Shown here: positions 1,401 to 47,791 of the stretch, in pieces
Layout of the letters: every line of letters begins with the position of its first letter
Position numbering within the stretch: position 1 is the first letter of the stretch
DNA from: an uncultured Clostridia bacterium
GTDB lineage: Bacteria > Bacillota > Clostridia > TANB77 > CAG-508
Length of the DNA stretch: 64,000 bases
Direction of reading: 5' to 3'
Assembly: GCA_944387555.1 (NCBI GenBank)
Contig: CALXFH010000008.1
Span: 357-64,356, forward strand
Program-made: the position numbers and the translations under genes
Notes under the pieces: generated by a model
The model's input: the letters and a program-made list of their open reading frames with translations, nothing else
What the model was told of the DNA's origin: nothing
The model's database searches: none

Positions 1401-1467
1401 TTTAAATTCCTCCTTAAATTTATTTTATTTTTAAAAATTAAATAACAAAATTATATTTTGCATAAGC

Positions 1468-1496
1468 ATTTTATAACATTTCTGCTAAAAATGCAA
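1468..1496 (-). promoter_or_regulatory. candidate sigma-A promoter in the fusA-tuf spacer
   Basis: Minus strand reads TTGCAT, 17 nt, TAAAAT. Confidence 0.4.
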
Positions 1497-1502
1497 GCTT
1501 TT

Positions 1503-3584: not shown

Positions 3585-3604
3585 TTTATATTTCCCCCTC
3601 TCTT

Positions 3605-4105
<501 letters not shown>

Positions 4106-4245
4106 TTAATGCTTTATATAGAAAGCATCTAGGTACTCTGAAAAGCTTAAGCTTTTCCGTATAGTGCTATATAATCTATTCTAAATTTAAGTACCTTAAG
4201 TTTAGTAAGAATTATAAGCACTAATTCATTTGCTAAACCTAAAGT

Positions 4246-4659
4246 CTATTTTTTAGGTTTTTTAGCACCGTATTTTGAACGTGCTTGCATTCTGTCTTTA
4301 ACACCTGCTGTATCTAATGTTCCTCTGATGATATGGTATCTAACACCTGGAAGGTCTTTTACCCTACCACCTCTAATTAATACAACACTGTGTTCTTGTA
4401 AGTTATGTCCTATACCTGGGATATAAGAAATAACTTCATAACCATTAGAAAGTCTAACTCTGGCAACTTTTCTTAATGCTGAGTTTGGCTTCTTAGGTGT
4501 AACTGTTTTTACAACTGTACAAACTCCTCTTTTTTGTGGAGATCTATTATTTGTTAATCTCTTATTTTTTGAGTTATAACCATAACGTAATGCTGGAGCT
4601 TTTGCTTTAGTTGTTTTTGTTTTTCTTCCTTTTCTTACTAATTGATTAATTGTTGGCAC
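4246..4659 (-). CDS. rpsL: 30S ribosomal protein S12
   Basis: 137 aa, [12 protein letters not shown]..., canonical S12. Confidence 0.97.
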
Positions 4660-4748
4660 TTAAATTTCACCTCCTGTTTTTTTATTTTACAATTTTATTA
4701 CTTCGTTACGGAAATGCATATTACATGCAATTTACTATAACGAATTAT

Positions 4749-4777
4749 ATTGTATCATGTAGTTACCAATAAGTCAA
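4749..4777 (-). promoter_or_regulatory. candidate sigma-A promoter of the rpsL-rpsG-fusA-tuf operon
   Basis: Minus strand reads TTGACT, 17 nt, TACAAT, directly downstream of the terminator at 4778-4807. Confidence 0.55.
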
Positions 4778-4807
4778 GAAAAACTTGGAATTTCTTCCAA
4801 GTTTTTT
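4778..4807 (-). terminator. intrinsic terminator after the K/E-rich ORF
   Basis: gaaaaacttggaa / ttccaagtttttc form a perfect 13-bp stem with a 4-nt loop. A- and T-runs flank it, so it could act in both directions. Confidence 0.7.
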
Positions 4808-4828
4808 CTTAAATATTTTTCTTTTTTA

Positions 4829-6010
4829 TTATCTAGTTTGATCATCGCTTTTATTTTTTGCTTCTTGTGCTTTTTTAGCTTCTTCCCTTTTTTGTGCTAT
4901 TCTTTCTTCTCTTACTTGCTCTACTCCTTTTTGAGCGACTTCTAATACATCATATTTTAAATAATCTCTAAATAATTCATTTTGCTTTTTCTTTTGATTA
5001 ACTTCTGTTGTTTCATTTTTAGAATCTTCTTGTTTAGAATCTTGTTGCTTTACTTCTTCACTATTATCTGTTCTAAAGAATTTCTTTGCTCTTAATAGTG
5101 TTTTTCCTATTAAATTGTCCTTCATGTTTGGAAATCTTTTTGCTAATCTAGGAAATTCTTTTTCGAAATCACTAACTTCAACTGGTAACTTAGTAGTAAT
5201 ATCTGAATCGCTTTTATCTCCTTCTGTTTTATTATTTTCTTTTTGTATTTCTTCTTTCAAAACGTTACTCTTTTCACTTTCTTGTTTTTTATCTTGTTTT
5301 GCTTTTAATTTTTCAGCTCTTGTTAAAGGTAATGGATCTTTAGCTGTAAATTTTTTATCTTTCCAACCTTCTAGTTTCACTTGTATGCTGTCTATACTTA
5401 AACCTTTCATTAAATTAGTTGCTACCATATCACATTTACTTTTCATACTAGAAATTTGAAAACATTTTGTTCTTAGCTCCTCATTAGAATATCTAGACAA
5501 TTTATTGTTACTTTGTTGTGATTGAGGTTTTTCATTTTTTATTTTAGCAAATTCTTGATTGTTTTTATCCGCTTGAAATCTTAGTTTAGATAATTCTTGA
5601 TCAATATCTTCTTTTTGCATTTGCAATGCTGCTATTTCTTCTTTATCTGTAGAAGCTGCAATTTTTTTATTGATTTCTTTTCTTTTTGCTATAAATTCAT
5701 CTTGCTTTTGTATATTTAAATTCATTTCTTTTTCAAGATCTTCTAAACTTATACTATTTGCTTTATTCTCTCTAGTTATATATTCGCCTTTATAAACTTC
5801 TAATTCTTCTTCTAATCTATCTATAAATTCAATTAAATTGTCAACTTTTGGTAAATTATTCATTACTTTTTGCATATTTTGATATTCAGCATATTCTTCC
5901 CTTGAAATAGTTTTATTTTGAACCTTTACTTTTAATTCTTCAAATCTTTCTTGTATATCAGGGCTTTTAAAATTTTCATACCATACTCTCCATCTCTTTT
6001 TATCTTTCAT
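4829..6010 (-). CDS. hypothetical lysine/glutamate-rich, probably coiled-coil protein
   Basis: Long ORF. ATG 6010 (MKDKKRWRVWYENFK) follows AAAGGAGG by 7 nt. It has its own promoter-like element and terminator. I recognised no family. Confidence 0.7.
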   Translation of the reverse strand: MKDKKRWRVWYENFKSPDIQERFEELKVKVQNKTISREEYAEYQNMQKVMNNLPKVDNLIEFIDRLEEELEVYKGEYITRENKANSISLEDLEKEMNLNIQKQDEFIAKRKEINKKIAASTDKEEIAALQMQKEDIDQELSKLRFQADKNNQEFAKIKNEKPQSQQSNNKLSRYSNEELRTKCFQISSMKSKCDMVATNLMKGLSIDSIQVKLEGWKDKKFTAKDPLPLTRAEKLKAKQDKKQESEKSNVLKEEIQKENNKTEGDKSDSDITTKLPVEVSDFEKEFPRLAKRFPNMKDNLIGKTLLRAKKFFRTDNSEEVKQQDSKQEDSKNETTEVNQKKKQNELFRDYLKYDVLEVAQKGVEQVREERIAQKREEAKKAQEAKNKSDDQTR

Positions 6011-7540: not shown

Positions 7541-7558
7541 CTAATTACTCCTTAAAAT

Positions 7559-7656
7559 GGGGACGTTTCCATTTGCTCATTTTTGAACATTTTGGGACAG
7601 ACCCTTACTAAGATGTATCCCAAATTGCACATTTTTGCGCAAATGGAAACGTTCCC
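7559..7656. repeat. palindromic intergenic repeat, full copy A
   Basis: Two ~45-nt arms in inverted orientation (GGGGACGTTTCCATTTGC...GGGACAGACC / GATGTATCCC...GCAAATGGAAACGTTCCC). Roughly 80% identical by eye to the reverse complement of copy B. Confidence 0.8.
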
Positions 7657-7661
7657 AATTA

Positions 7662-10600
7662 TTATTCAAACAATCTCATTATTTCTTCTCTTGAGAATTT
7701 GTTTATAAATGTTGTCTTTGTATCTAGCAAGTTATCTGCTAGTTTTGCTTTCTTTTCTTGTAATTCATATATTTTTTCTTCTATTGAATTTTTTGTTATT
7801 AATTTATATACTTGTACATTATTCTTTTGTCCTATTCTATATGCTCTATCTGTTGCTTGATTTTCTGTGGATATATTCCACCAAGGGTCGTAGTGAATTA
7901 CCATATCTGCTCCTGTTAAGTTTAGTCCTGTTCCTCCTGCTTTTAATGATATTAAGAATAGTTTTATTTCTGGATTTTCATTAAACTCATCTACCATTCT
8001 CATTCTTTCATCTACTTTTGTTGCTCCTGTTAGTTTGAAATAATTTATATTACGCTTCTTTAGTTCTTTTTCTATTATTTCAAACATTGATGTATATCCT
8101 GAAAATAGTAATATCTTATGTCCTCCATTTATTGCTTCTTCTATTATTTCTATACACTGGTCTAATTTACTACTTCCTCCATTATAGTTATCTATAAATA
8201 AACTTGGATGGCAACATATTTGTCTTAATCTTGTTAATGCTGCTAAAATTTGCATTTGTGAGTTTTCAAATCCACTTATTTCTATCTTATCTGCTATTTC
8301 TTGTTTTGCCTGAGCTAAATATGTTAAATACAAGTTTCTTTGTTCTTCATTCATTTCATTATTTAATACTGTTACTGTTTTTTCTGGTAATTCTGTTAAT
8401 ACTTCTTTTTTATTTCTTCTTAGAACAAATGGTTCTATTAACATTTTTAATTTTTTCATTGCATTTTCATCTTGTTCTTTTACTATTGGTGTTTCATACA
8501 TATTTTTAAATTTTCTATATGTAAATAAATATCCTGGCATTATAAAATCAAATATTGACCATAGTTCTGCTAAAGAGTTTTCTATTGGCGTTCCTGTTAA
8601 AGCATATCTAGTTTCTGCTTTTATTTGTTTTATTGCCTTTGCATTTTTTGTATTACTATTTTTTAAATATTGTGCTTCATCTGCAATTACATATTTAAAC
8701 ATATAGTTTTTCTCTTTATAGAGTTCAATATCTCTTTTTAGTAAATCGTATGATGTTATGACTAAATCATAATTATCTATTTCATTTATTAATCTTTTTC
8801 TTTCTGACAATGTTCCTCTTATAACGGCTGTTTTTAGCTCATTTGTGAATTTTGCCGCTTCGTTTTGCCAGTTTAATGTTAGAGAACTTGGTGATACTAC
8901 TAAACTTGTTTTTCTATCTTCTTTTTCTGCATAATCTACTATTACTGATAACATTTGAATTGTTTTTCCAAGTCCCATATCATCTGCAAGGATTCCTCCA
9001 AAGTGATATTTATCTAATGTTTTTAGCCATCTATATCCTGTTTTTTGGTAATATCTTAGAACATTGTTTAGTTTAGATGGTATTTCTATTTCTTCTTCCA
9101 ATTGTTCTTTATTTAATCCATTTACTATTTTCTTATATTCTGAATTTTTTAATATTTCTGTTCCCTTTATTCCTTTTAGTAACTGATTTAAATATAATGT
9201 TCTATTTACTGGAAGGCGCAATTCTCCATCTTCTAATTCTTTATAGTCTACTCCCATTCCTGTTTTTAATTTGTCTAAAAATTCTATTTCTTTATTATCC
9301 TCTAAGTTTATAAAGCTTCCATCTTTTAATCTATAATATTTCTTTTTTAGGGAATATTTTTCCATTATATCTTGTAATTCACTTGAGTCTATATCTATTT
9401 TACTTAAATCTATTGTTAGTAAATCATTTTCCACTTTTACGCCAAGCCCTGTCATTTTAGGACTTCTTATTTGTTTCTTTTTAAAATTTTCTGTTACCAT
9501 TACAGCAAATTTTTGCATATAGTAGTTTATGTCTTCTGTTAAGAATTCATATATTTTATCATCATTTGGTAGTATAAATCTTGTATTCTTTACATCTAAC
9601 ATAAAGCCTGTTTTTCTAAATACGTTTAGTGCTTTTGTTTCCTTAATCATATTTCTTGGGAAGTTTATTTTTTCATTTTCATTTAGTGGATTAAATTCAT
9701 TTTCTTCATAGCAAAATCTAACATCTGCTACTAAATAATCATTTTTATCAAAGTCTAGAAATACTTTTACAACTAATTCTTTTGGTTTATATTTTTCTAT
9801 TTCTTCTTCTGTTAATCCTTCTATTTTTATTGCATCTTTTACTTTTGGTAATACTACTGAAAAGAATTCTGTTAATTCTTCTTCTCCGAATTCTATTTCT
9901 GTTACGTAGTTTTGTCTAAATAATTCTAATAATTTTAAGCTTGTTCTTTCAAATTCTTTACTACATCTATATAATTTTTTATCTGTTATTATATATTTAT
10001 ATAATTTTCCTCTTAATATTGTAATTTCATATATTTCCTTATCTGGATATATTACAAAATTTTCTTCTTTATTTTTCTTTAATATAAAATCTAGTTTTGG
10101 CTCTTCTTCTGTAAATTCTATTTTGTCTACTGAATAGTCTTTATTAAATTCTACTTCTTTTCCTTTTAAGACTTCAAACAAATCATCTATTCCAGTATTT
10201 CCTACTAATATATTTGTTTCGTTTAATGCTTTTCCATAATATCTAAAGTTACTATTAGAATTTGAGTTTGCATATTTTATTATTTCTGCATATTTTAGTA
10301 TAAAATCAAGTAAAGGCTTACTTTCTTCTGCAAATGCATCCCTTGTATGTACAAATTCTAATTTTTGCCCATATTTATAATTTTCTTTATTTAACATTCT
10401 TGTATAAAAATCTGCCAAGTTTTTGATTTTATACATTTTTTTGTTTCCTATTTTAAATTCTACTTTTATATCTCCCGAAAATTTCTCATAATAAATAATA
10501 GGCTCTATTTTTATAGTTCCTTTTTGTTTTATTTCATCTTCTTCGTCTGCTATTCCTTCTACTTCTTCTTGGTAAAAACTGTTTACTATTTGTTTAAAGT

Positions 10601-11003
10601 TTCTATAAGCTTGTGGCTCTAATTTGGTTGTATTAAATATATTATGATTATTATCCAATTTTTCTTCATTCTTAGAGTCTTTTTCCACATATTGTTCTAT
10701 ATATTGTGGATTATTTATAAATTCTAATACTGTAGCTAGTGTATGTTTGCAAATTCCATAATGATTATAGTAATCTTCACACGTACAAGTTACATCTTCT
10801 ACCATTCCATTTTTTATACTTATATATGTTTTATAAATTTCATTTCCTATTACATTTGCACTTAAAGAAAAGTTCATACTATCTTCATAGTCTACATTCT
10901 TTATTCTTACTCTTTCTTGCTTTTGGTATTCTATTGCTCTTTTCTTTCTTCCTTCTCCTGCATCTTTATATAAATCTTCTAATATTTCATGATTTACAAG
11001 CAT
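7662..11003 (-). CDS. SNF2-family helicase with N-terminal SWIM zinc finger
   Basis: SWIM motif CTCEDYYNHYGICKH. SNF2 motifs GILADDMGLGKT, DEAQYLKN and LTGTPIEN, plus a helicase C domain. ATG 11003 follows a GGAGGAG SD. Confidence 0.9.
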   Translation of the reverse strand: MLVNHEILEDLYKDAGEGRKKRAIEYQKQERVRIKNVDYEDSMNFSLSANVIGNEIYKTYISIKNGMVEDVTCTCEDYYNHYGICKHTLATVLEFINNPQYIEQYVEKDSKNEEKLDNNHNIFNTTKLEPQAYRNFKQIVNSFYQEEVEGIADEEDEIKQKGTIKIEPIIYYEKFSGDIKVEFKIGNKKMYKIKNLADFYTRMLNKENYKYGQKLEFVHTRDAFAEESKPLLDFILKYAEIIKYANSNSNSNFRYYGKALNETNILVGNTGIDDLFEVLKGKEVEFNKDYSVDKIEFTEEEPKLDFILKKNKEENFVIYPDKEIYEITILRGKLYKYIITDKKLYRCSKEFERTSLKLLELFRQNYVTEIEFGEEELTEFFSVVLPKVKDAIKIEGLTEEEIEKYKPKELVVKVFLDFDKNDYLVADVRFCYEENEFNPLNENEKINFPRNMIKETKALNVFRKTGFMLDVKNTRFILPNDDKIYEFLTEDINYYMQKFAVMVTENFKKKQIRSPKMTGLGVKVENDLLTIDLSKIDIDSSELQDIMEKYSLKKKYYRLKDGSFINLEDNKEIEFLDKLKTGMGVDYKELEDGELRLPVNRTLYLNQLLKGIKGTEILKNSEYKKIVNGLNKEQLEEEIEIPSKLNNVLRYYQKTGYRWLKTLDKYHFGGILADDMGLGKTIQMLSVIVDYAEKEDRKTSLVVSPSSLTLNWQNEAAKFTNELKTAVIRGTLSERKRLINEIDNYDLVITSYDLLKRDIELYKEKNYMFKYVIADEAQYLKNSNTKNAKAIKQIKAETRYALTGTPIENSLAELWSIFDFIMPGYLFTYRKFKNMYETPIVKEQDENAMKKLKMLIEPFVLRRNKKEVLTELPEKTVTVLNNEMNEEQRNLYLTYLAQAKQEIADKIEISGFENSQMQILAALTRLRQICCHPSLFIDNYNGGSSKLDQCIEIIEEAINGGHKILLFSGYTSMFEIIEKELKKRNINYFKLTGATKVDERMRMVDEFNENPEIKLFLISLKAGGTGLNLTGADMVIHYDPWWNISTENQATDRAYRIGQKNNVQVYKLITKNSIEEKIYELQEKKAKLADNLLDTKTTFINKFSREEIMRLFE

Positions 11004-11105
11004 AGTTTTCTCCTCCACCTGGCAAACTATTATATTACAAAAAGCAAAAAAAATCAAGTTTTATTTTTTGTTAAAAACAAAACCTTTAAATAAACATTTT
11101 TCTAT

Positions 11106-11134
11106 TTGTAAATTTAATTAAAATATGCTATACT
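11106..11134 (+). promoter_or_regulatory. candidate sigma-A promoter of the 25-codon ORF
   Basis: TTGTAA, 17 nt, TATACT, with an extended -10 TG. Confidence 0.5.
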
Positions 11135-11177
11135 TATTCTGTTCATTTATAATTTACCTCCAGAAAGGAGCTAAATT

Positions 11178-11255
11178 ATGGACTCTAACCAATTAATTGT
11201 TTTCTTAGTGACATTAGTAATAGTGTTAGCATTTGGAAACAAAGACAAATCTTAG
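11178..11255 (+). CDS. 25-aa hydrophobic peptide MDSNQLIVFLVTLVIVLAFGNKDKS (candidate type I toxin-like or small membrane protein)
   Basis: AAAGGAG SD lies 7 nt before the ATG. One predicted TM helix with a polar C-terminal tail. Below the ORF-track size cut-off. A promoter lies upstream and two hairpins downstream. Confidence 0.45.
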   Translation: MDSNQLIVFLVTLVIVLAFGNKDKS

Positions 11256-11308
11256 TACTTATGCGTACATAAGTAAAAGACTAGGTGGTGAAGACCTAGT
11301 CTTTTTTG
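11256..11308 (+). terminator. two tandem hairpins after the small ORF, the second a bidirectional intrinsic terminator
   Basis: tacttatg-cgta-cataagta at 11256-11275. agactaggt-ggtgaag-acctagtct at 11278-11302, followed by T6 and preceded by an A-run. Confidence 0.65.
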
Positions 11309-11378
11309 TTCATTTTTACGAACTCAAACCAATTTTATGTTGAATAGAAAGTAGATTTTAAATCTATATCTTATTCAT
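11272..11378 (-). ncRNA. candidate ~100-nt convergent small RNA (putative antitoxin RNA)
   Basis: Inferred from the minus-strand promoter at 11385-11413 and the shared terminator. Contains the internal palindrome tagattttaaatcta. No ORF longer than 4 codons. Confidence 0.3.
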
Positions 11379-11384
11379 ACATAT

Positions 11385-11413
11385 ATATTACTACAAATTT
11401 CCTATTATGTCAA
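11385..11413 (-). promoter_or_regulatory. near-consensus minus-strand sigma-A promoter facing the small ORF
   Basis: Minus strand reads TTGACA, 17 nt, TAATAT. Confidence 0.5.
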
Positions 11414-11545
11414 ATATTTTCAATATGCTTTAAAACTATTTTTTTAATAATGGTTTATTTTTCTAAGCTTTTGTAGTAAAATATTATAGAAGAAAATTTT
11501 AATTAAAATTTCTTTATTAAATTTATACCTTTAGGAGGTATCACT

Positions 11546-12541
11546 ATGAAAAAATATAAAGTTGCCATTGTCGGCGCAACAGGACTTGTTGGTAGGTCCT
11601 TTATAAAAGTTTTAGAAGAAAAAAATTTACCAATTGAAAGCTATTCTTTATTTGCAAGCAAAAGATCAGCAGGGACAAAACTTTCTCTTTTAGGTAAAGA
11701 GTATGAGGTCCAAGAATTAACTGAGCATTCTTTTGATTCTGGATTTGACTATGCACTATTTTCAGCAGGTGGAGATGTTTCTAAAAAATATGCTCCAATT
11801 GCAGCATCAAAAGGCTGTATTGTTATTGATAACAGTAGTTATTTTAGAATGCATGAAGATGTACCTTTAGTAGTTCCAGAAGTAAATTTTGAAGATACTT
11901 ATAACAATAAAGGTATTATCGCTAACCCAAACTGTTCTACTATTCAAGCAATGCTTCCACTTAAAGCTTTAGATGACAAATATGGAATTAAAAGAGTAGT
12001 TTATTCTACTTATCAAGCAGTTTCTGGTGCTGGTAAAAGTGCTTTAGATGATTTAGCAAATATGGATAACAGTAAACCATTAAAGAAATTTCCTCATCCA
12101 ATATTTAATAACTGCTTACCTCATATTGACTCATTTTTAGATAACGGATACACAAAAGAGGAAATGAAAATGATAAATGAAACAAGAAAGATTTTACATC
12201 ATCCAGATTTAAGAGTTACAGCAACTACAGTTAGGGTTCCTGTTTCAAACTCTCATTCTGAATCTATTAATGTAGAATTAGAAAAAGATTTTGAGATGGA
12301 TGATTTAGTAAATACTTTAAGAAACTTTCCAAATATAATTATTGTAGACAATCCTGAAAAGAACGAATACCCTATGCCAATAAATGCAACAGGTCATGAT
12401 GAAGTTTTTGTTGGAAGAATTCGTCGTGACGATAGTGTAAAATCTGGCGTAAACTTATGGGTTGTTGCAGACAACATTAGAAAAGGGGCTGCTAGCAATG
12501 CAGTTCAAATACTTGAAAGATTAATACAAGAACAAATATAA
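11546..12541 (+). CDS. asd: aspartate-semialdehyde dehydrogenase
   Basis: 331 aa, VGATGLVG NAD fold, active-site NPNCSTI. Confidence 0.95.
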   Translation: MKKYKVAIVGATGLVGRSFIKVLEEKNLPIESYSLFASKRSAGTKLSLLGKEYEVQELTEHSFDSGFDYALFSAGGDVSKKYAPIAASKGCIVIDNSSYFRMHEDVPLVVPEVNFEDTYNNKGIIANPNCSTIQAMLPLKALDDKYGIKRVVYSTYQAVSGAGKSALDDLANMDNSKPLKKFPHPIFNNCLPHIDSFLDNGYTKEEMKMINETRKILHHPDLRVTATTVRVPVSNSHSESINVELEKDFEMDDLVNTLRNFPNIIIVDNPEKNEYPMPINATGHDEVFVGRIRRDDSVKSGVNLWVVADNIRKGAASNAVQILERLIQEQI

Positions 12542-12545
12542 ACAT

Positions 12546-12575
12546 AAATGACTAGGAATTTAATCCTAGTCATTT
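12546..12575. terminator. bidirectional terminator between convergent asd and dapB
   Basis: aaatgactagga / tcctagtcattt form a perfect 12-bp stem with a 6-nt loop. Confidence 0.8.
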
Positions 12576-12580
12576 ATATT

Positions 12581-13327
12581 TTATTTAACAATATCATTCA
12601 TGTCATATAAACCTTTATCTTGCTTTACAATAAATTCTGCAGCTTTTAAAGCTCCTTCTGCAAAAACTTGTCTTGAATAAGCTTTATGTGTTATTTCTAA
12701 TTCTTCATTATCGCCAAAGAACTTAACGCTATGTTCTCCTACAATATTTCCACCTCTAATAGATGAAAACCCAATTTCATTTTTCTTTCTTGCCTCTCTT
12801 TTTTGCATTCTATCAAATGTATAAGTTTTCTTTTCTTTTAATACATCATTGATAGCATTAGCTAAAAGAATTGCTGTTCCACTTGGTGCATCTATTTTTC
12901 TATTATGATGTGTTTCTACTATTTCTATATCTGTATTTGTTAAAACCTTAGCAACCTCTTGTACGATTTTTGCCATTAAGTTTATATCTAAAGACATATT
13001 AGAACTTCTAAATATAGGAATTTCTTTTGAAAATTCTTCTATTTGTTCTATTTCATCTTTAGTAAATCCAGTTGTTGCAATTACAATTGGAACTTTATTA
13101 TTTACTGCATATTTTAAGATCTTAAAAGTTGCAACTGGTACTGAAAAGTCTATTATAACATCTACTTTTTCTTTAATATCTTCTATATCAGAATAAATAG
13201 GAAATCCTTTATCGTTGTTTTGGACTCTATCAACTCCGCAAACAACATTAAAATCTTCCATAGTATTTATAAGACTCAAAAGCTCATTTCCCATTTTTCC
13301 ATCTGCACCATTTATTAATACATTCAT
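12581..13327 (-). CDS. dapB: 4-hydroxy-tetrahydrodipicolinate reductase
   Basis: 248 aa, DapB-like (INGADGKMG..., EIVETHHNRKIDAPSGTA). Confidence 0.95.
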   Translation of the reverse strand: MNVLINGADGKMGNELLSLINTMEDFNVVCGVDRVQNNDKGFPIYSDIEDIKEKVDVIIDFSVPVATFKILKYAVNNKVPIVIATTGFTKDEIEQIEEFSKEIPIFRSSNMSLDINLMAKIVQEVAKVLTNTDIEIVETHHNRKIDAPSGTAILLANAINDVLKEKKTYTFDRMQKREARKKNEIGFSSIRGGNIVGEHSVKFFGDNEELEITHKAYSRQVFAEGALKAAEFIVKQDKGLYDMNDIVK

Positions 13328-13361
13328 CTTTTTCTCCTTATTCTATTTTTGTTTTAACTTT

Positions 13362-14246
13362 TTATATCAAATTATGTTTTTTCATAACTTCTTTCATTTT
13401 TTCTTTATTGCTATCAGATAACTCAATTAATGGTAATCTTGGCTTTCCAAAATTATATCCCATTAAGTTTAATGCATATTTAACTGGTATTGGATTTACT
13501 TCTGCAAATAATGCATCTATTAAATCAATTACATCTAATTGCATTTTAGTTGCTTCTTCAATTTCACCATTAAAATATTTATAAGTCATTCTATGTGTAT
13601 ATTCTGGCATAACATTTGCTAAAACTGATATAACGCCTTTTCCTCCTAATGATAAAACTGGAATAATTTGGTCATCATTTCCTGAATATATATCCAAATT
13701 GTCTCCACATAAAGAAGCTATTTTTGCTACTTGTGATATATTTCCACTAGCTTCCTTAATTGCTACTATATTATCTATTTTAGATAATTCTAAGCAAGTT
13801 TCAGGTAAAATATTTACACCTGTTCTACTAGCTACGCTATACATTATAATAGGTAAGCTTACAGAACTTGCAATTGCTTTGTAATGTTCAACTAAACCTT
13901 TTTGTGTTGTTTTATTATAATAAGGTGTTACAACAAGTAGCGCATCTGCACCTACTTCTTCTGCATATTTTGACATCTCAATTGCTGATTTTGTATTATT
14001 ACTTCCAGTTCCTACAACTACTTTAGTTCTTTTTGCAATCTTATCAATTGCAAATTTTATTGTATCTTTCTTTTCTTTCTCAGACATTGTAGCTGACTCT
14101 CCAGTAGTACCACAAACAATAATTGCATCTACTCCGGCTTTAATTTGGTCCTCTAATAATTTTCCAAACTCCTCAAAATTTACTCCATCTTCTGTAAATG
14201 GTGTTGCAATAGCTGTTCCACATCCTTTAAAAATAGTCTCTTTCAT
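13362..14246 (-). CDS. dapA: 4-hydroxy-tetrahydrodipicolinate synthase
   Basis: 294 aa, GTTGESATMS motif, DapA-like throughout. Confidence 0.95.
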   Translation of the reverse strand: MKETIFKGCGTAIATPFTEDGVNFEEFGKLLEDQIKAGVDAIIVCGTTGESATMSEKEKKDTIKFAIDKIAKRTKVVVGTGSNNTKSAIEMSKYAEEVGADALLVVTPYYNKTTQKGLVEHYKAIASSVSLPIIMYSVASRTGVNILPETCLELSKIDNIVAIKEASGNISQVAKIASLCGDNLDIYSGNDDQIIPVLSLGGKGVISVLANVMPEYTHRMTYKYFNGEIEEATKMQLDVIDLIDALFAEVNPIPVKYALNLMGYNFGKPRLPLIELSDSNKEKMKEVMKKHNLI

Positions 14247-20033: not shown

Positions 20034-20117
20034 TTTAAACTTCTTTTCCTTCCTAATTTATTATAAAATTATTTTATAATAAATACAATAAAATATCAAT
20101 AGTAAATTAACAATTAA

Positions 20118-20233
20118 GGACGTTTCCTTTTGCACAAAAACACACAATTTGGGACACATCACATTCAAAGGTCTGTCCCAAAATGCGCAAAAATGTGCAA
20201 AAAGAAACGTCCCCGATTGTCGGAAACGTTCCC
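20118..20233. repeat. palindromic intergenic repeat, full copy B, with an extra terminal 12-mer
   Basis: GGACGTTTCCTTTTGCAC...GGGACACATC / GGTCTGTCCC...AGAAACGTCCCC, then gattgtc and GGAAACGTTCCC. It abuts the ftsH stop codon. Confidence 0.8.
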
Positions 20234-23273: not shown

Positions 23274-24258
23274 TCATTTAATTTCCATCTTTGTTTTTAA
23301 TTTTTCTACTTCTTTTTCACTAAGTTCTGTTATTTCTTCTACTTGACTTACACTATATCCCATAGTTAACAAATTTTTAGCTACACTTATTTTTCCCTCT
23401 TTTCTGCCTTCTTTTATGCCTTCCCTTCTACCTTCTCTTCTACCTCTCCTTCTTTCGCCTTCTATTTCGTTTCTTATTGTTCTCTTGTTATTGCTAATTC
23501 CATATCTTCTCCACTTCCTTTCCCATTTATTATTCTTCTATATAATTCTAAAATTTCTTCTCTTGTTTCTTCACTTAAGTCATTCACCATAATGTTCTTT
23601 ATTAGGTTTTCTATATATTTTAAGCCATTTTCGTCTAAATGTTTTATCATCTTTTTTAATATTTCACCTAATTTTTCTGTTTTCTTTACCTTTTCTATTA
23701 ACATTACTTTAGTAATTAGACTATTATCTTTTAACAATTCTTCTTCTGTACATTTATTTACATCTAATATTGAGTAATTTCCTAAAGTTTTATTATCTCC
23801 AATAACTACTCTTGCTCCATCTTCTAATTTATATTGTATATTTCTAATATACAATTCAGCATCCCATTCTTTTCTTCCTGTATAAATACAATTCCAATAA
23901 CTAAAGCTTCTTTATTATCCTTTGTATTTTTATAACTTTCCCAGCTTCTCATAACTTCTATTTGGTAATTTGACATCCTATATGGCATTCTATAATCAAT
24001 TACACTTTGATGTTCTAAAACAAAATATATATTTTCCCCTTTTATCTTATATACGCAATCTGCTTCTTTATATTTGTAATTACTAGTTATAAAGCTATTA
24101 GTTACTCTTTCTATTTCCCAGAACATTAAACTTATTCCTAAAACCCAATTGATAATATGCACAGCCTCTTTTACATTATAGAATAAGTTTTTAAATACTT
24201 TATCTTGTTTATTTCTAATTTTATTTTTAGTAGTATTTTTTGTTTTCTGTTTTCTCAA
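23274..24258 (-). pseudogene. Rpn-family (YhgA-like, PD-(D/E)XK) recombination-promoting nuclease or putative transposase, disrupted by two frameshifts
   Basis: Three consecutive frames together give a complete Rpn-like protein. Piece 1 has the N-terminal nuclease core (EADCVYKI...VLEHQS). Piece 2 starts YTGRKEWDAEL after a shift at a T-run near 23880. Piece 3 is the EGRREGIKEGRKEG repeat tail, after a second shift near 23474. Confidence 0.6.
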
Positions 24259-25934: not shown

Positions 25935-26381
25935 CTATTTACTTATTACATCTACTTTTAAGTTTCCAATAACTCCATCATATAGTTTTATTGTTACTGT
26001 TCTTAGTCCTAATGTTTTTATTGTTTCTTTTAAATCTATTTTCTTTTTATCTACTTCTATATTATAATTTTTCTTTAATAAGTCTGCTATTTCTTTTGCT
26101 GATACTCCACCAAAGATTTTTCCATTTTCTCCTGCTTGTACTGGTACTTTTAATTGAATACCAGCAAGCTTCTCAGCAACCTTTTTAGCTTCTTCTCTTT
26201 CCTGTTCTTTCTTATATGCTTTAGAGTCATTTTTAGCTTTTAATTTACTCATATTTTCACTATTTGCTTCTACTGCTAATCCTTTTGGTAATAAGAAGTT
26301 TCTTGCATATCCATCAGCTGCATTTATTACTTCATCTTTTTTACCTACACCTTTTATATCTGCTTTTAATATTACTTTCAT
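25935..26381 (-). CDS. rplI: 50S ribosomal protein L9
   Basis: 148 aa, MKVILKADIKGVGKKDEV... Confidence 0.95.
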   Translation of the reverse strand: MKVILKADIKGVGKKDEVINAADGYARNFLLPKGLAVEANSENMSKLKAKNDSKAYKKEQEREEAKKVAEKLAGIQLKVPVQAGENGKIFGGVSAKEIADLLKKNYNIEVDKKKIDLKETIKTLGLRTVTIKLYDGVIGNLKVDVISK

Positions 26382-26434: not shown

Positions 26435-26622
26435 GGTTATTTTAATTAAAAAGAAAAATCAGGTAGCCTATCCAAGTTTCACTTGAACTCGTTCCCTGAT
26501 TTACATCACTCTTTTTTACAAAATAAAGAAGAATTCACAAGGTTTTAATAACATTTACACAGTTAACTTGACAATCTCTCAATTTTCTACTATTTCTAAT
26601 ATTCACAACTCAGGAGTCAGTG

Positions 26623-27831
26623 CTACTTTATATATAAAGTAAGACGCGCTGAATAGTAGTTAGGGGTATTGTACGGATAGTAGTTGTCACGATCGCTAGG
26701 AGCGTAGCCACTGCTAGAGTGACCTCCACGACTAACACGAAGTTCTATGTCGTAGGCCTCTAATGTCCACTCTCTATGACAACCATAAAGGTCATATACA
26801 TTTTTCATAAAATCTTTTTCTTGCTTTCCTGTTGTTGTAGAACTATTTCTTATTGTTTCAGTGCCATCAGCTAATGCTGACACATTTAATCCGTTTGCCT
26901 GCATCCAATTAAGCATTGCATCATATTGACTTCCCCATATCATTGTGCTTACTACTGATTTATTACTATCTTCTGGTGCAAATTCTTTACATTTACTATA
27001 TAAGCCATACCATCTATAAGTATTTGAATTACTTGCATCTGCTGTTGTTACTGATGTATTTGTACTAGCATTTTTTACTACAGGTAGTGTTCCTTCTAAA
27101 CCTAATTCATATCTTCCTACATAAAAACCATGATATTCACTTACACTTTCTATCATCTTATTATATTCTTGTTGTAAACTATCTTCTGTTACTATTTTAT
27201 TTCCATCTTCATCTTGATTATATGAAGAATTATCTGCATGAGTCGAATCTGTTAAATAAGCTGGCTCTCTATAACTAGTTGTAGTTGTCGTACATCCGCT
27301 TTGTACATTTGAACCACTACTTGTAAAGTTATAAAGAAGTCCTCTATAATTATTTCCACTCTTTATTGCCATTGCTTTATTATTTGTTCCATCTGCTTCT
27401 TTTTCTGCTACTGCTGTTTCTACTGGTACCCATACAAATTCATTTCTATTTTCATCTCTTATTACTAACCCCTCTGACACATCATTTAGACCTGGTACTA
27501 TTTCAAAGCCAGATGGTATCCACGCTTTATCTCCATCATCATCTTCGTATTCTTCATTTTTATCTGCTATCATTCCTGGCCCAAATGTTAAATTTTCGTT
27601 ATTTTCATTATAAGCCTGTTCCATCATACTATCAGTCTGGTTATATTCTTCTTGTATTTTATTTAGTTGTGCTTGCTGTGAACTACTCTTGTTCATCATA
27701 GAAAAATAAGCAATAAAGATAACTCCTACAACTACTAACATTGTTGAAAGTACAAATACTGTTATAGAACCTTTTTCACTCTTTTTAAAATTTTTTAAAA
27801 TTTCCTTTTTTTCTCTTTTTTCTTTTTTCAT
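26623..27831 (-). CDS. membrane-anchored FGE-sulfatase / C-type-lectin-fold protein (candidate DGR variable protein)
   Basis: 402 aa with an N-terminal signal anchor. The C-terminal half has FGE/CLec-like landmarks GFYVGRYELG, WGSQYDAMLNWM, YDLYGCHREWT, RVSRGG and ARLTL. An AAAGGAG SD lies ~13 nt before the ATG, and the gene starts 20 nt after the gdpP stop. Confidence 0.75.
   Translation of the reverse strand: MKKEKREKKEILKNFKKSEKGSITVFVLSTMLVVVGVIFIAYFSMMNKSSSQQAQLNKIQEEYNQTDSMMEQAYNENNENLTFGPGMIADKNEEYEDDDGDKAWIPSGFEIVPGLNDVSEGLVIRDENRNEFVWVPVETAVAEKEADGTNNKAMAIKSGNNYRGLLYNFTSSGSNVQSGCTTTTTSYREPAYLTDSTHADNSSYNQDEDGNKIVTEDSLQQEYNKMIESVSEYHGFYVGRYELGLEGTLPVVKNASTNTSVTTADASNSNTYRWYGLYSKCKEFAPEDSNKSVVSTMIWGSQYDAMLNWMQANGLNVSALADGTETIRNSSTTTGKQEKDFMKNVYDLYGCHREWTLEAYDIELRVSRGGHSSSGYAPSDRDNYYPYNTPNYYSARLTLYIK
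26638..26739 (-). other. variable-region-like patch (adenine-depleted scaffold with NNY codons) at the 3' end of the FGE/CLec gene
   Basis: Read from the codons. 17 of 23 consecutive codons are NNY codons reachable from AAY. The 6 scaffold codons contain no A. Every Arg codon in this segment that I translated is CGT. Confidence 0.5.
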
Positions 27832-27851: not shown

Positions 27852-29873
27852 TTAACTTTCTATTTCTGTAAAATATTCATGTATTCTGTTTATTAATTCT
27901 TGTTTTGCTTCTTCCATAGTCATATTATCAACTTGAGCACCAGCCAAAGTAATATGACCTCCTCCACCTAACTTTTCTAATATTACTTGTACATTAATAT
28001 CTCCAATAGAACGTCCGCTAATACAAATTTTATCACCAGTATTTCCAAGTACAAATGACGCTGTAATATCACTTATTGTAAGTAACTCGTCTGCTGCTTT
28101 AGCACAAATAAGGTTTGCTTCAGGTGATACTTCATCATATGTCGATATTGCAATTTCATCTTCTAATATTTCTGCTTTCTTTACTATGTCTGCTATTAGG
28201 TTAAAACTCTTTAAATCACTTTGGAACCATTTTTTAACTCTTATTATATCAATACCACATCTACGTAAATATGCCGCTGCCTCAAATGTTCTTACACCTG
28301 TTTTAAATGTAAAGTTTTTAGTATCCATCATAATTCCCGCGTATAAACTTTCTGCTTCTATTGTTTTTAAATTTATTTTCGCTTCTGCATATTGTAGAAG
28401 TTCTGTAACTAGTTCTGCAGCTGATGATGCATAAACTTCTTGGAACATTAAAGTTGCATCTTCAATAAAATCTGTACTTCTTCTGTGATGGTCAACTACA
28501 ACTATCTTTTTAGCTTTATCCAATAATTCTGGACTATCTACATAATTTACTTTATGAGTATCTACTACAACTAATAAAGTATCTTCATCTATATTTTCTA
28601 ATGCCACTTCTTTATTAATGATAACATCTTCATATTCTGGATCCTTTTTAACTTCTTCCATAAAGTTTTCTAAAGCTGGAGTATTATCACTGCAAATTAT
28701 ATATGCATTTGTATTTAAAGTTTTAGCCAAACGATAAATTCCCATACAAGAACCTATACTATCCATATCAGGATTTGTATGTCCCATTACCATTACTTTA
28801 CTTGCATCTTTCATTAAATTCTCTAATGCATGAGCTACTACTCTTGCTTTTACTTTAGTTCTTTTTTCTACTTCTTCTACTCTACCACCAAAGAATTTAT
28901 ATATTTCATTTTCACGAATTACTGCTTGGTCTCCACCACGTCCTAAAACAACATCCATTGCACTTTGAGCTGATTTATATTTTTCTTTATCAGTATTTCC
29001 TTCATTAGATATTGCAATACTTAAAGTAAACTGTACTTTTTCCTTAGTATCTATTTCTTTTATTTTATCTAAGATACTAAATTTATCTTCTTTAACATCA
29101 TCTAAATATCTTTGTTCAAATAAATATACATATCTATCTCTATCTGATTTTATTAAAACGCCATTTGTTTTATTAGCCCAGTCATACATTTGCTTATCAA
29201 TTTCAGCTGTAATTAGTGGTTTTTCTCCTGCATCTAGTCTTTGCATTGTTTCTTCATAATTATCTACCATTATAATTCCAATACAAGATTTAGAATCTCT
29301 ATATTCCTTTTGTAATTTTTTATTTTCTGTATCATCAATAAAGTATAAAATAACCATATATTCCTTTTTGTTTCTTTTGTCTCTATTTCTAAAGTTAACA
29401 TACTTTCCCATTACTTTATACATATTGTTTCCAATTTTCATTTCTGTTAAAATATCACTATTTCCAGTTCCACCACTTGCTATTTCATCTTTAATATCAA
29501 CTATTAAATCATTTAAATATGTATTAATATCTATATTTGCAAACTCAGTATTAAACTTAGTACTTCTCCATATTATATTTCCATCTGTTTCTAAAATAAT
29601 TAATGGAAAAGGTGAATTTATTAAACTTGTTTTAGCTGCTGTATCTACTGTTAAAGTTAAATCTTGCAAAGTTTCTGATATTTCACTTTTTCTTTTTTTA
29701 TTTGCATAATAAGTATATCCTACTATAACTCCGTATAATAGAATTGAAGGTATTATCATATTAATGTTTTCTATACTAATTACTACTAATAAAATTAATA
29801 TTATCGCTAAATATATCTTTGTTCTAGATACAAGCGAGTCAAAGACTTTTCTATTATTATTTTGCATACGCAT
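27852..29873 (-). CDS. gdpP: cyclic-di-AMP phosphodiesterase GdpP
   Basis: 673 aa. Two N-terminal TM helices, PAS-like and degenerate GGDEF regions, DHH (VVVDHHRRS) and DHHA1 (GGGGH) motifs. Confidence 0.88.
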   Translation of the reverse strand: MRMQNNNRKVFDSLVSRTKIYLAIILILLVVISIENINMIIPSILLYGVIVGYTYYANKKRKSEISETLQDLTLTVDTAAKTSLINSPFPLIILETDGNIIWRSTKFNTEFANIDINTYLNDLIVDIKDEIASGGTGNSDILTEMKIGNNMYKVMGKYVNFRNRDKRNKKEYMVILYFIDDTENKKLQKEYRDSKSCIGIIMVDNYEETMQRLDAGEKPLITAEIDKQMYDWANKTNGVLIKSDRDRYVYLFEQRYLDDVKEDKFSILDKIKEIDTKEKVQFTLSIAISNEGNTDKEKYKSAQSAMDVVLGRGGDQAVIRENEIYKFFGGRVEEVEKRTKVKARVVAHALENLMKDASKVMVMGHTNPDMDSIGSCMGIYRLAKTLNTNAYIICSDNTPALENFMEEVKKDPEYEDVIINKEVALENIDEDTLLVVVDTHKVNYVDSPELLDKAKKIVVVDHHRRSTDFIEDATLMFQEVYASSAAELVTELLQYAEAKINLKTIEAESLYAGIMMDTKNFTFKTGVRTFEAAAYLRRCGIDIIRVKKWFQSDLKSFNLIADIVKKAEILEDEIAISTYDEVSPEANLICAKAADELLTISDITASFVLGNTGDKICISGRSIGDINVQVILEKLGGGGHITLAGAQVDNMTMEEAKQELINRIHEYFTEIES

Positions 29874-44400: not shown

Positions 44401-45309
44401 ATGTTTCAAAGTATAAAGAAAAATAAAATAGAGTCAGGTGTAATAATTGGTATATTTATTGTAGTAATTACATTAATTGTTTATTTTATTTGTAATGCAT
44501 TAAATTTAGGCAGTATTTCTATTGTAATAGCATTAATTTTCTCAATTGCATCTGCATGGGGTTCTTACTATTATAGTGATAAAATAGTCTTATCTGTAAA
44601 TAGAGCAAGACCAGCAACTAAAGAAGAAGACCAGAAATTAGTAAATATTTTAGATAGTTTAATGGTAGCATCAGGCTTACCTTGTAAACCTAGATTATAT
44701 ATTGTAGATGACGCACAGCCAAATGCTTTTGCAACAGGTAGAAACCCAGAAAATGCAGTTATATGTGTAACAACAGGTCTTCTAGAAAAATTAGATTACT
44801 ATGAGTTAGAAGGAGTAATCGCACATGAAATGAGCCATATTAAAAACTATGACATTCGTTTATCTTGTGTTGTTTCTGTTATGGTAGGTTTTATTGTAAT
44901 GCTTGCTGATTTATTCTCTAGAACATTATTCTGGGGCGGATTAAGAGGTAGAGACAATGATAGCGAAAGTAATGCAAATGGTATTTTAATGATTATTGGT
45001 TTAATCTTTTTAATATTATCTCCAATATTCGGTTCTTTAATGCAACTTGCATTATCTAGGAAAAGAGAATTTTTAGCAGACGCAACCGCAGTAGAATTTA
45101 CCAGAAACCCTGATGGGTTGATTTCTGCATTAGAAAAATTAGAAAATGATCCTAACCAACTAGAAACAGCAAACAGTGCTACTGCCAACATGTATATAGT
45201 AAATCCATTTAAGAAAGATACTAAAGAAGGAAAAAGAAGAACAACAAGTATTTGGTCTACACACCCAAGTACAGAAGATCGTATAGCAGCATTAAGAAGT
45301 TTAAAATAG
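44401..45309 (+). CDS. htpX: M48-family zinc protease HtpX-like
   Basis: HEMSHI zinc motif and four TM segments. Confidence 0.9.
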   Translation: MFQSIKKNKIESGVIIGIFIVVITLIVYFICNALNLGSISIVIALIFSIASAWGSYYYSDKIVLSVNRARPATKEEDQKLVNILDSLMVASGLPCKPRLYIVDDAQPNAFATGRNPENAVICVTTGLLEKLDYYELEGVIAHEMSHIKNYDIRLSCVVSVMVGFIVMLADLFSRTLFWGGLRGRDNDSESNANGILMIIGLIFLILSPIFGSLMQLALSRKREFLADATAVEFTRNPDGLISALEKLENDPNQLETANSATANMYIVNPFKKDTKEGKRRTTSIWSTHPSTEDRIAALRSLK

Positions 45310-45352
45310 GGACGTTTCCTTTTGCACAAAAATGCGCAATTGGGGACACATC
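45309..45352. repeat. palindromic-repeat half copy C
   Basis: GGGACGTTTCCTTTTGCACAAAAATGCGCAATTGGGGACACATC matches arm 1 of copy B. Confidence 0.75.
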
Positions 45353-45375
45353 TTAATTAAATAAAGTCAAAGTAA

Positions 45376-45403
45376 AAGATGAAGAAATTATTTTCCTCAT
45401 CTT
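45376..45403. terminator. bidirectional hairpin between convergent htpX and the LamG gene
   Basis: aagatgaagaaa / tttcctcatctt form a 12-bp stem with one mismatch and T-runs on both sides. Confidence 0.55.
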
Positions 45404-46592
45404 AATTTTTGCTTTGAACTAATACATTATGATATGCAACTGTTTTATCATAGTTTGCTTTTACCTCATCTGCTGTTAATACTTTATTATATAATCTACA
45501 AGCATAAATATCTACATTTGAATAATACTCTGTATAAGAAGCTCCTCCTACACGAAATCCTATTGTAAAAGGCACCTGATTATCAGCAAGACTTCCTCCT
45601 AGCATCCATTCCTTGCCACAAGTAGTTCGATCTATAAACTCTCCATTCCAGTATAGGGATATTTCACTATTTTCTATATCTACTACCATTGTTAAATACC
45701 CACCATTTTCTAAATTGAATGTTCCTACATTTTCTTTTCTTACCCAATGTCTCATACTTTCTCCTGGGCTCCAGACTGATTCACTTGGTAAATTAGACAT
45801 ACAACAATAAAAACTTTGATATACAAAATATGTTCTAAATTTATTTGTATATGTAGAACTTTCTGTATCCCCCTTTATTGTCTTACTTAATAAAGATTTA
45901 TCATTATTATCACCTTTCGCATAAAACTCAAATGTTAAACCATTTTCTATATTTACATTAGCTTGAGGATATACTTCTATATAATCATCTACACCATCTA
46001 ATTTAAACTCTGTTTCATTCCAACCGTATCCATCTCCTTCTTGTACTCCATATACAGTTACTCCTTCTCCCCAGGAATTGCTATCTCCCATATTTATTGG
46101 GTCAGCATTTAAAATTATTCCATCTGTCACAGCTAAATTTTCTCCATAAGCTAATTTTACAAATCCTTCTTCTGGTAATTCTATTACTTCTCCTGTTTCA
46201 TAATCTATTACCCATTCATATTTTGTTTCTCCATAATTTTCTAAATTAGTTCCTTTTCCTACAAAGTAACAATTATCTCCATATACAATACCTGTATCAT
46301 TTACTGAAACTATTTTCCAATTGTCTCCGTTAGCTAAAGTTCTATCTCTTAATTCTTCTCCTATATTATATTTTTCATCATTTGTCATTTCTTTATTTAT
46401 CATTGTTAGCTGTATAGCTTCTCTTTCTGATGCTATTTCTGTTTCTTCTTTTGCATTTTGTGCTTGAGTAAGAATCCCATTTTGTCCTGTTAGCATTGCT
46501 ATTGAAACGCCAGCTAAAATTAGTAAAACTATTATAGTGATAACTAAAGCAATAAGTGTAATACCTTCTATTTTTCTTGTCTTTTCTTTCAT
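45402..46592 (-). CDS. prepilin-like N-terminus fused to a LamG / concanavalin-A-like lectin domain
   Basis: N-terminus KIEG-ITLIALVITIIVLLILAGV resembles the type IV pilin methylation motif. The C-terminal LamG-type signature is DIYACRLYNKVLTADEVKANY. Confidence 0.75.
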   Translation of the reverse strand: MKEKTRKIEGITLIALVITIIVLLILAGVSIAMLTGQNGILTQAQNAKEETEIASEREAIQLTMINKEMTNDEKYNIGEELRDRTLANGDNWKIVSVNDTGIVYGDNCYFVGKGTNLENYGETKYEWVIDYETGEVIELPEEGFVKLAYGENLAVTDGIILNADPINMGDSNSWGEGVTVYGVQEGDGYGWNETEFKLDGVDDYIEVYPQANVNIENGLTFEFYAKGDNNDKSLLSKTIKGDTESSTYTNKFRTYFVYQSFYCCMSNLPSESVWSPGESMRHWVRKENVGTFNLENGGYLTMVVDIENSEISLYWNGEFIDRTTCGKEWMLGGSLADNQVPFTIGFRVGGASYTEYYSNVDIYACRLYNKVLTADEVKANYDKTVAYHNVLVQSKN

Positions 46593-47657: not shown

Positions 47658-47693
47658 AATTTACTTCCTTTATCTCAATAAACACTTTATATA

Positions 47694-47738
47694 GATGTGT
47701 CCCCAAATGCTCAAAAATGTGCAATTGGAAACGTCCCC
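47694..47738. repeat. palindromic-repeat half copy D, inverted relative to C
   Basis: GATGTGTCCCCAAATGCTCAAAAATGTGCAATTGGAAACGTCCCC. The inner 11 nt are the exact complement of the inner end of copy C. Confidence 0.75.
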
Positions 47739-47791
47739 AATTTACCCAATTTAAAAACTAGTAGTACTAACTACTAGCTTTCATATAAAAA

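Follow-up and report, generated by a model that had tools for sequence, protein, structure and literature searches.

A probable remote target of a diversity-generating retroelement between gdpP and rplI in an uncultured Clostridia bacterium

We analysed a stretch of 64,000 nucleotides from an uncultured Clostridia bacterium (the window; NCBI GenBank assembly GCA_944387555.1, contig CALXFH010000008.1, positions 357 to 64,356), in which a gene for a 402-residue protein lies between gdpP and rplI on the minus strand. An earlier note, made from the letters of the window, had pointed to the 3′ end of this gene as resembling the variable region (VR) of a diversity-generating retroelement (DGR). We find that the segment 26638-26758 is probably a genuine VR of a DGR located outside the window, next to gyrA and probably on the same chromosome, and that the gene product is probably a membrane-anchored protein with a C-type-lectin-like fold of the formylglycine-generating enzyme (FGE) type. 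A template repeat (TR) related to the segment is found beside the genes for a DGR-type reverse transcriptase (RT) and Avd, on contigs from the same metagenome samples. The target gene and the parts of its VR are the following.

26623-27831, minus strand: variable-protein gene, 402 amino acids, from the open reading frame (ORF) and its translation
26638-26733, minus strand: core VR, 96 nucleotides, codons 367-398, in register with the off-window TR (L013:10313-10407)
26734-26758, minus strand: 5′ extension of the VR, GGCC TAC GAC ATA GAA CTT CGT GTT, homologous to the 5′ part of the TR

The last 45 or so codons of the gene show an abrupt shift in composition: GC rises from about 0.3 to 0.5, arginine codons change from AGA to CGT, and third positions change to C or T. 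The interval from RGG to SAR consists of 23 codons, 17 of the form NNY (N, any base; Y, pyrimidine) and six free of adenine (TCT, GCT, CCT, CGT, CCG and CCT). Only two codons of the core VR end in A, GGA and TCA, and both are present in the TR too. Over the 40 ORFs of the window, AGA is used 608 times and CGT 77 times; in the patch, arginine is encoded exclusively by CGT. We scanned these ORFs with 17,528 sliding 30-codon windows and compared the patch with the maxima of the other 39 ORFs. The patch ranks first for all measures.

GC: patch 0.52; maximum in other ORFs 0.50; mean 0.29
C-ending codons per 30: patch 12; maximum in other ORFs 9
Y-ending codons per 30: patch 28; maximum in other ORFs 23
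Y-ending or adenine-free codons per 30: patch 29; maximum in other ORFs 23

The codon-position pattern of the patch is a clear outlier, and its GC content by itself is marginally unusual. The codons listed in the earlier note, including the count of 17 NNY and six adenine-free codons, match the sequence exactly on re-reading, and the exclusive use of CGT holds as well. The GC-richness that it stressed is real in rank, with a small margin over the other ORFs. Two details did not hold: the GC-rich gcgcgtc, placed after the stop codon, in fact belongs to the coding sequence, where it lies in the 3′-terminal part of the patch, and a hairpin proposed at 26604-26622 folds no better than shuffled sequence (DNA fold z = -0.95).

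The window itself contains no other DGR part. No TR was detected in the window when both strands were scanned with tolerance for mismatches at adenines (best non-self match 41 of 123 bases), and tblastn searches of the window with RT, Avd and MutS-like proteins gave no such gene (best E = 0.18), which bears out the earlier observation that neither a second copy of the segment nor an RT is present. The stretch free of DGR parts extends 26.6 kb to one side of the target gene and 37 kb to the other. Searches with a degenerate VR/TR pattern returned only a chance match, in Streptomyces, from the GTDB genome collection, and a broader pattern returned nothing from IMG/VR viral contigs or JGI metagenome contigs. 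The cassette was reached through the protein P0004, the closest homologue with a different N-terminus, which is 77% identical to the target protein.

The off-window cassette and its template repeat

A complete DGR cassette surrounds the P0004 gene on contigs of the same metagenome samples (L012, L013 and L017-L020). It comprises, in order, a helix-turn-helix regulator on the opposite strand, the adjacent (cis) target of 459 amino acids, a MutS_I-like accessory gene (MutS-like, MSL; 143 amino acids), Avd (131 amino acids), the RT (338 amino acids) and the TR. Pfam matches are to MutS_I, bAvd and RVT_1, and the Avd protein matches NCBIfam DivGenRetAVD with E = 1e-19 and 70.7 bits, under the curated cut-off of 80. 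The RT has the motifs PIGNYTSQ (IGxxxSQ type) and YMDD. The TR is 111 nucleotides long (L013:10297-10407) and begins 60 nucleotides past the RT stop codon. The next gene is gyrA, and the cassette is therefore chromosomal.

Pairing the TR with the VRs gave 94 aligned nucleotides, comprising 37 TR adenines and 57 other bases, and the distribution of mismatches was evaluated with a Fisher test.

Window VR versus TR: adenines differing 15/37; other bases differing 6/57; p = 9e-4
Cis VR versus TR: adenines differing 15/37; other bases differing 2/57; p = 7e-6

The two VRs differ from each other at 28 positions, 20 of which are TR adenines. Within the window, the patch is the sole significant match to the TR (26665-26731, E = 8.6e-8). 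The 5′ extension of the VR (26734-26758) is out of register with the TR of its own species, which is 10 nucleotides shorter there. The earlier note had anticipated a TR adjoining a DGR-type RT and an Avd gene, and this is the arrangement found: the TR lies directly 3′ of the RT, with the Avd gene just upstream. It had also anticipated mismatches at adenines only; they are concentrated there (15/37 versus 6/57), with six to seven at other bases in addition. A TR variant that would make the window VR an adenine-only derivative was sought by way of the RT variants P0243 and P0122, and neither provides one.

The cassette and the window gene occur together. The contig L001 (ERZ24773358 NODE_470) is 100% identical to the window and is evidently the contig from which the window comes. 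In sample ERZ24773297, coverage is 8.0 for the window gene and 7.4 for the DGR, and both are also present in sample ERZ28615349. Over the whole protein collection, the window protein is found on 47 contigs, compared with 46 for the RT and 41+2 for the cis target. In a sibling lineage, an RT that is 90% identical (P0122) and the gdpP-rplI orthologue L014 are found in one sample at coverages of 4.3 and 4.4. The window and the DGR contigs also have a palindromic repeat in common, resembling repetitive extragenic palindromic (REP) elements.

Window 7553-7664, 20104-20220, 45302-45364 and 47685-47744, intergenic: REP-like palindromic repeat, about 50-110 nucleotides, GGGGACGTTTCC...TTTGGGACA and its inverse
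L012 8288-8348 and 13698-13742: copies of the REP-like repeat flanking the cassette

From these observations, which agree with one another, we infer that the cassette and the window gene are probably on one chromosome.

Two further features of the cassette contigs were observed. A tract of about 3.8 kb of nearly pure A/T (GC 7-9%), composed of degenerate short-period repeats (TAAA, AAAATAAAT) and with no gene called, lies a few kb upstream of the cassette (L017 844-4620; L012 ~1000-6000; L013 1-3800). On L012, from one sample with 3.9x coverage, the RT (11474-12490) is split into ORFs of 123 and 212 amino acids, owing to either a frameshift allele or an assembly error.

Protein family and predicted fold

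The product of the target gene is predicted to have a membrane anchor at its N-terminus and to contain a long helix and a beta-rich domain. The predicted C-terminal domain is FGE/C-type-lectin-like, and its terminal part is the VR. We built an AlphaFold2 model on an alignment of 42 homologues. Its mean predicted local distance difference test (pLDDT) score is 79, with values above 90 over much of residues 91-180 and of 85-97 over much of residues 81-320. A Foldseek search against the PDB returned as top match 2Y3C, the structure of the DGR target TvpA from Treponema denticola, and the next 35 matches all have the FGE fold (PvdO, PorK, FGE, pFGE, CarF, EgtB and SenA). The probability reached 0.99, the best E-value was only 5e-3 and TM-scores were low, in part owing to the long helices at the N-terminus of the full-length query. 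Among viral models, phage tail-collar fibre proteins were the best matches.

We therefore assign, with moderate confidence and on the basis of the model, an FGE/C-type-lectin-like fold to the C-terminal domain. Sequence searches did not detect it: the target protein matches no Pfam family at E <= 0.01, FGE-sulfatase (PF03781) included, and neither the protein nor the family profile has an FGE or C-type-lectin match in Pfam, NCBIfam or PDB sequence searches, so that the fold comes solely from structure prediction. The fold named in the earlier note is thus supported by the similarity of the predicted structure to TvpA and FGE folds, with weak Foldseek E-values and no FGE-sulfatase match on the other side. 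The likeness to FGE, pFGE, PvdO, PorK, CarF and EgtB is at the level of the fold, and does not imply an enzymatic role.

Pfam domains are absent from the 2,150 homologues of the target protein; precomputed Pfam annotation was looked at for 120 of them. In the alignment of 42 homologues, most of the length is conserved, and the C-terminus combines hypervariable positions with a fixed scaffold, EWTLEA....RVxRGG....P.S.R....P.......S.RLTLYIK. At the DNA level, distant members too retain the scaffold codons, and the codons that vary are of the NNY form. A pair of paralogues from a single contig (L008) differ almost exclusively at NNY codons. Judged from these alignments, the family pattern is the trace that adenine mutagenesis of AAY codons would be expected to leave. 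This pattern agrees with the interpretation given in the earlier note. In the distant members L008, L009 and L010, the NNY variable regions are crisp, and there is no RT within 10 kb.

The L008 paralogues (10001-14052) flank a gene with an ORF6N domain and lie between groEL and rplU; they may likewise be remote DGR targets among housekeeping genes.

The N-terminal part of the target protein contains one hydrophobic segment.

27700-27768, minus strand: hydrophobic N-terminal segment SITVFVLSTMLVVVGVIFIAYFS, from the translation; modelled as a helix

This segment may be a signal anchor or a pseudopilin-like helix; the profile similarity to type IV pilins is weak, with non-significant E-values of 0.11-0.21. 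An N-terminus with ...GITLIALVITIIVLLILAG... is found in the cis targets and in many homologues, and the start of the window protein, GSITVFVLSTML..., is more divergent. A second protein of the window (45402-46592, minus strand) has a pilin-like N-terminus, GITLIALVITIIVLLILAGVSIAMLTG, in common with the DGR cis targets. Its C-terminus is a Laminin_G_3/ConA-like lectin domain (Pfam E = 1.3e-6) with no VR-like end, and the REP-like repeats at 45302-45364 and 47685-47744 are close by. This protein suggests a family of surface lectins built on one common N-terminal module.

Locus, boundary and present state of the variable region

The target gene is placed among housekeeping genes.

27852-29873, minus strand: gdpP (cyclic di-AMP (c-di-AMP) phosphodiesterase; Pfam GGDEF_GdpP, DHH and DHHA1), ending 20 nucleotides upstream of the target gene
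25935-26381, minus strand: rplI (ribosomal protein L9; Pfam Ribosomal_L9_N/C), 241 nucleotides downstream of the target gene and followed by dnaB (Pfam DnaB)

The genes rpoB and rpoC lie upstream of this region, and there is no terminator-like site between the target gene and rplI. The description of the gene as a remote target embedded in a housekeeping operon, given in the earlier note, agrees with these distances. SpoIIE, encoded at 52418-54808, marks the host as a spore-forming Firmicute; the GC content is about 28%. The order gdpP-X-rplI is also found in related lineages, where the VR is in different states.

L021, syntenic locus: crisp GC-rich VR with different outcomes at adenine sites
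L022 and L007, syntenic loci: decayed VR with AT-rich codons (GC 0.34)
L014/L015, syntenic loci: gene truncated ahead of the VR

The homology between TR and VR ends at ...GCCCGTCTCACT, with a GC-rich boundary GC(C/G)CGTCT(C/T)AC, and is followed in the target genes by two elements.

26625-26640, minus strand: perfect 16-nucleotide palindrome ACTTTATATATAAAGT, overlapping the TLYIK codons and the first base of the stop codon, where TR-VR homology ends
26573-26622, minus strand: 3′ flank common to DGR cis target genes, about 90% identical to L016 and absent from the decayed syntenic orthologues

The palindrome consists of A and T only. A 14- or 16-nucleotide version is kept, at the nucleotide level, in the window, in the cis targets L013 and L016 and in the distant members L008 and L009; in all crisp-VR family members examined, distant ones included, it is conserved together with the sequence TAGNACTGA that follows. 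We hypothesize, by analogy with phage BPP-1, that the palindrome is a candidate target-recognition (cruciform) element, a counterpart of the initiation of mutagenic homing (IMH) sequence and hairpin of that phage.

According to established DGR biology, the RT together with Avd would reverse-transcribe the TR RNA and copy its adenines with errors (PMC5758913, PMC12875486). The resulting cDNA would replace the homologous VR in the adjacent target and, in trans, in the paralogue between gdpP and rplI. The 3′ boundary would be set where TR-VR homology ends, at the GC-rich GC(C/G)CGTCT(C/T)AC, beyond which the palindrome, present in the VR only, and the conserved flank follow. Homing at the window locus would have taken place in the past.

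Several observations weigh against this interpretation. The link between the two loci comes from co-occurrence and not from a closed assembly. Compared with any of the three TR variants seen, the window VR has six to seven mismatches at bases other than adenine, two of them within the GC-rich 3′ boundary segment (GCC to GCG and CTC to CTT). In the cis targets an outer stem, GTCTCA/TGAGAC, extends across the stop codon; the window copy of this stem is broken. The TR of the own species has a frame-breaking deletion of 10 nucleotides in its 5′ part; the TR of a sibling species (L026) is full length, and the deletion is therefore assigned to the TR, with all VRs retaining the 10 nucleotides as well. 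In L024 and L016, the cis VR exceeds the TR by one codon. Nucleotides 640-1061 of the target gene share 95-100% identity with the L016 cis target, and their similarity to the orthologues is much lower. Finally, the VR does not vary: the target gene and the 242 nucleotides downstream are identical at the DNA level among six contigs from different samples, and the protein, including the VR, is identical on 47 contigs from many samples in two studies. The single near-identical variant (P0001) differs outside the VR only, and the cis VR is likewise invariant.

The invariance is a weak test, because the strains are near-clonal outside recombination tracts and consensus assemblies hide minority variants. 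The contigs L001-L006 are identical in most 1-kb bins and differ in dense patches of single-nucleotide polymorphisms (SNPs), for example in the first ~4.2 kb of L002, mostly rpoB, which are 94% identical; homologous recombination is therefore frequent on a near-clonal background. The lack of SNPs in the target gene was considered as a sign of unusual conservation and rejected, as SNPs cluster in recombination tracts and most 1-kb bins contain none. Large within-species clusters of orthologues (the 90% protein clusters P0008, P0010, P0036 and P0072) were likewise considered as a sign of VR hypervariation, and this was rejected because their C-termini are essentially invariant. The polymorphism expected in the earlier note was thus not seen in the 47 protein and six DNA contigs, all from consensus assemblies. 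That note had also held that a patch identical across strains would speak against a DGR; the identity observed speaks against current activity, and not against the patch being a DGR VR.

The window VR carries the marks of past adenine mutagenesis and shows no detectable turnover. The genes for RT, Avd and MSL are kept under purifying selection, judging from dN/dS values of 0.09-0.30, compared with 0.06-0.18 for gdpP and rplI, and the dS of the RT (0.45) is close to that of gdpP (0.50), which fits vertical inheritance. In our reading, the DGR is maintained and works on evolutionary timescales; in the sampled populations it would be active rarely, if at all, and neither VR has been rewritten recently.

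It is also conceivable, though unlikely, that the VR is being diversified now, by a DGR whose activity is infrequent or tied to particular conditions, with minority alleles that are invisible in consensus assemblies. The intact ORFs of RT, Avd and MSL with their low dN/dS are consistent with such activity, as is the VR scaffold, which has not decayed in a genome of about 28% GC while those of L007 and L022 have. The palindrome and 3′ flank are conserved, the near-clonality of the strains implies that little time has elapsed, and low-coverage data under-detect DGR activity (PMC8144416). The same consensus in two studies, the equally invariant cis VR, the mismatches at bases other than adenine to all TRs seen, the 10 nucleotides missing from the TR and the substitutions in the 3′ boundary segment and the stem all argue against it.

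A still less probable explanation is that the VR was diversified in a cis target and then copied by recombination or gene conversion, so that the window locus was never a substrate for retrohoming and the VR is an imported fossil. The target gene is indeed a mosaic. Its first ~290 nucleotides resemble the syntenic orthologues (~85% identity to L014) and are only ~40-45% identical to cis targets, whereas nucleotides 640-1061 resemble the L016 cis target, as described above. The blastn homology between the window and L012 reaches 50 nucleotides beyond the stop codon and then ends. Recombination with a cis-target gene therefore shaped the window copy, and recombination tracts are frequent in these strains. 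However, L021 has a crisp VR with different outcomes at adenine sites, for which homing at the locus is a simpler explanation than repeated imports, and the window and L016 VRs differ at many positions, although the sequences immediately upstream are nearly identical. In either case, the patch was made by a DGR.

An origin of the patch unrelated to a DGR, as a compositional island from horizontal transfer or as a selected Tyr/Ser/Asn-rich binding loop that uses NNY codons, would fit the GC content barely above the 0.50 found elsewhere and the missing Pfam FGE-sulfatase match, but is highly improbable in view of the TR with adenine-biased mismatches beside a DGR RT and Avd in the same samples, the codon-position pattern far beyond the range of the window, and the restriction of family hypervariability to the same scaffold.

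Going beyond the probable assignment of the segment as a remote VR, we tentatively propose that the gene between gdpP and rplI is a vertically inherited remote DGR target that a clade of spore-forming Firmicutes has kept at a single housekeeping site, with machinery under purifying selection, one fixed VR per species, and lineages that pass through crisp, decayed and deleted states. If this speculative proposal were correct, DGR activity might be confined to rare events, for example host switches, germination or stress, or VRs might be 'frozen' once a specificity is useful. The AT-only palindrome over the stop codon would be a trans-targeting signal, and co-transcription with gdpP would link the display of a variable lectin to c-di-AMP signalling.

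Comparison with known systems and other features of the window

The closest analogue is the DGR of Treponema denticola, with TvpA and seven remote targets (2Y3C; PMC4891356; PMC5758913). Both DGRs are chromosomal and not phage-borne, with the VR at the extreme C-terminus of an FGE/C-type-lectin-like fold and paralogous targets away from the RT. The Treponema accessory gene is HRDC (PMC5758913), whereas the present cassette has MSL and Avd; unlike TvpA, the present protein has a predicted N-terminal membrane-anchor or pilin-like helix; and in contrast to the seven remote targets of Treponema, one has been seen so far here, with no turnover detected.

MSL accessory genes co-occur with avd in 'Architecture D' as described by Wu et al. 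(2018), and the Legionella DGR has an MSL gene (PMC5758913). The present cassette resembles this architecture in its small MutS_I-like gene (143 amino acids) with avd, RT and TR. Its host, a Firmicute of low GC content that encodes SpoIIE, is known from metagenomes only.

The DGR of phage BPP-1 (Mtd, Avd, TR and bRT) shares with the present system adenine-specific changes from TR to VR, Avd, the IGxxxSQ and YMDD motifs, and a C-terminal VR on a C-type-lectin fold. Unlike the present system, it is phage-borne and has a single adjacent target. In BPP-1, the TR is located between avd and the RT gene, and the VR is followed by a GC-rich IMH and a GC hairpin; the element after the present VR is instead the AT-only palindrome of 16 nucleotides with its conserved flank.

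Remote targets are already well documented. Of the 372 DGRs of Wu et al., 45 had non-adjacent targets assigned to them; in ten DGRs the targets were more than 100 kb away, nine of them without evidence of phage association (PMC5758913). Nothing in the present case departs from the known DGR scheme, and it leaves the knowledge of how DGRs work unchanged. It is distinguished by its conserved place among housekeeping genes, by VR states that form a natural series, and by a palindrome of A and T only. According to Roux et al., the design of metagenome surveys makes them miss remote targets, as RT and VR end up on different contigs, and large surveys state that they cannot detect such targets (PMC8144416). 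The present target was recognisable by its codon signature alone. It could then be tied to a cassette by way of the closely related target gene adjacent to the RT, the samples and repeats in common, and coverage that matched. The related lineages form a small natural series at one syntenic site, with crisp, decayed and deleted VRs and conserved RT, Avd and MutS-like genes, which could serve to study how DGR targets arise, become frozen and disappear.

An Rfam scan of the window returned nothing. Between dnaB and tilS, a YhgA-like (Transposase_31) gene is present as two overlapping ORFs of 144 and 126 amino acids (23474-24258, minus strand); it is absent at the same site in L014 and L021, and is probably a lineage-specific insertion, possibly frameshifted. 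At the far end of the window, an ORF of 2,921 amino acids (55211-63976, minus strand) contains an array of 9-nucleotide periodic repeats at 60753-60860.

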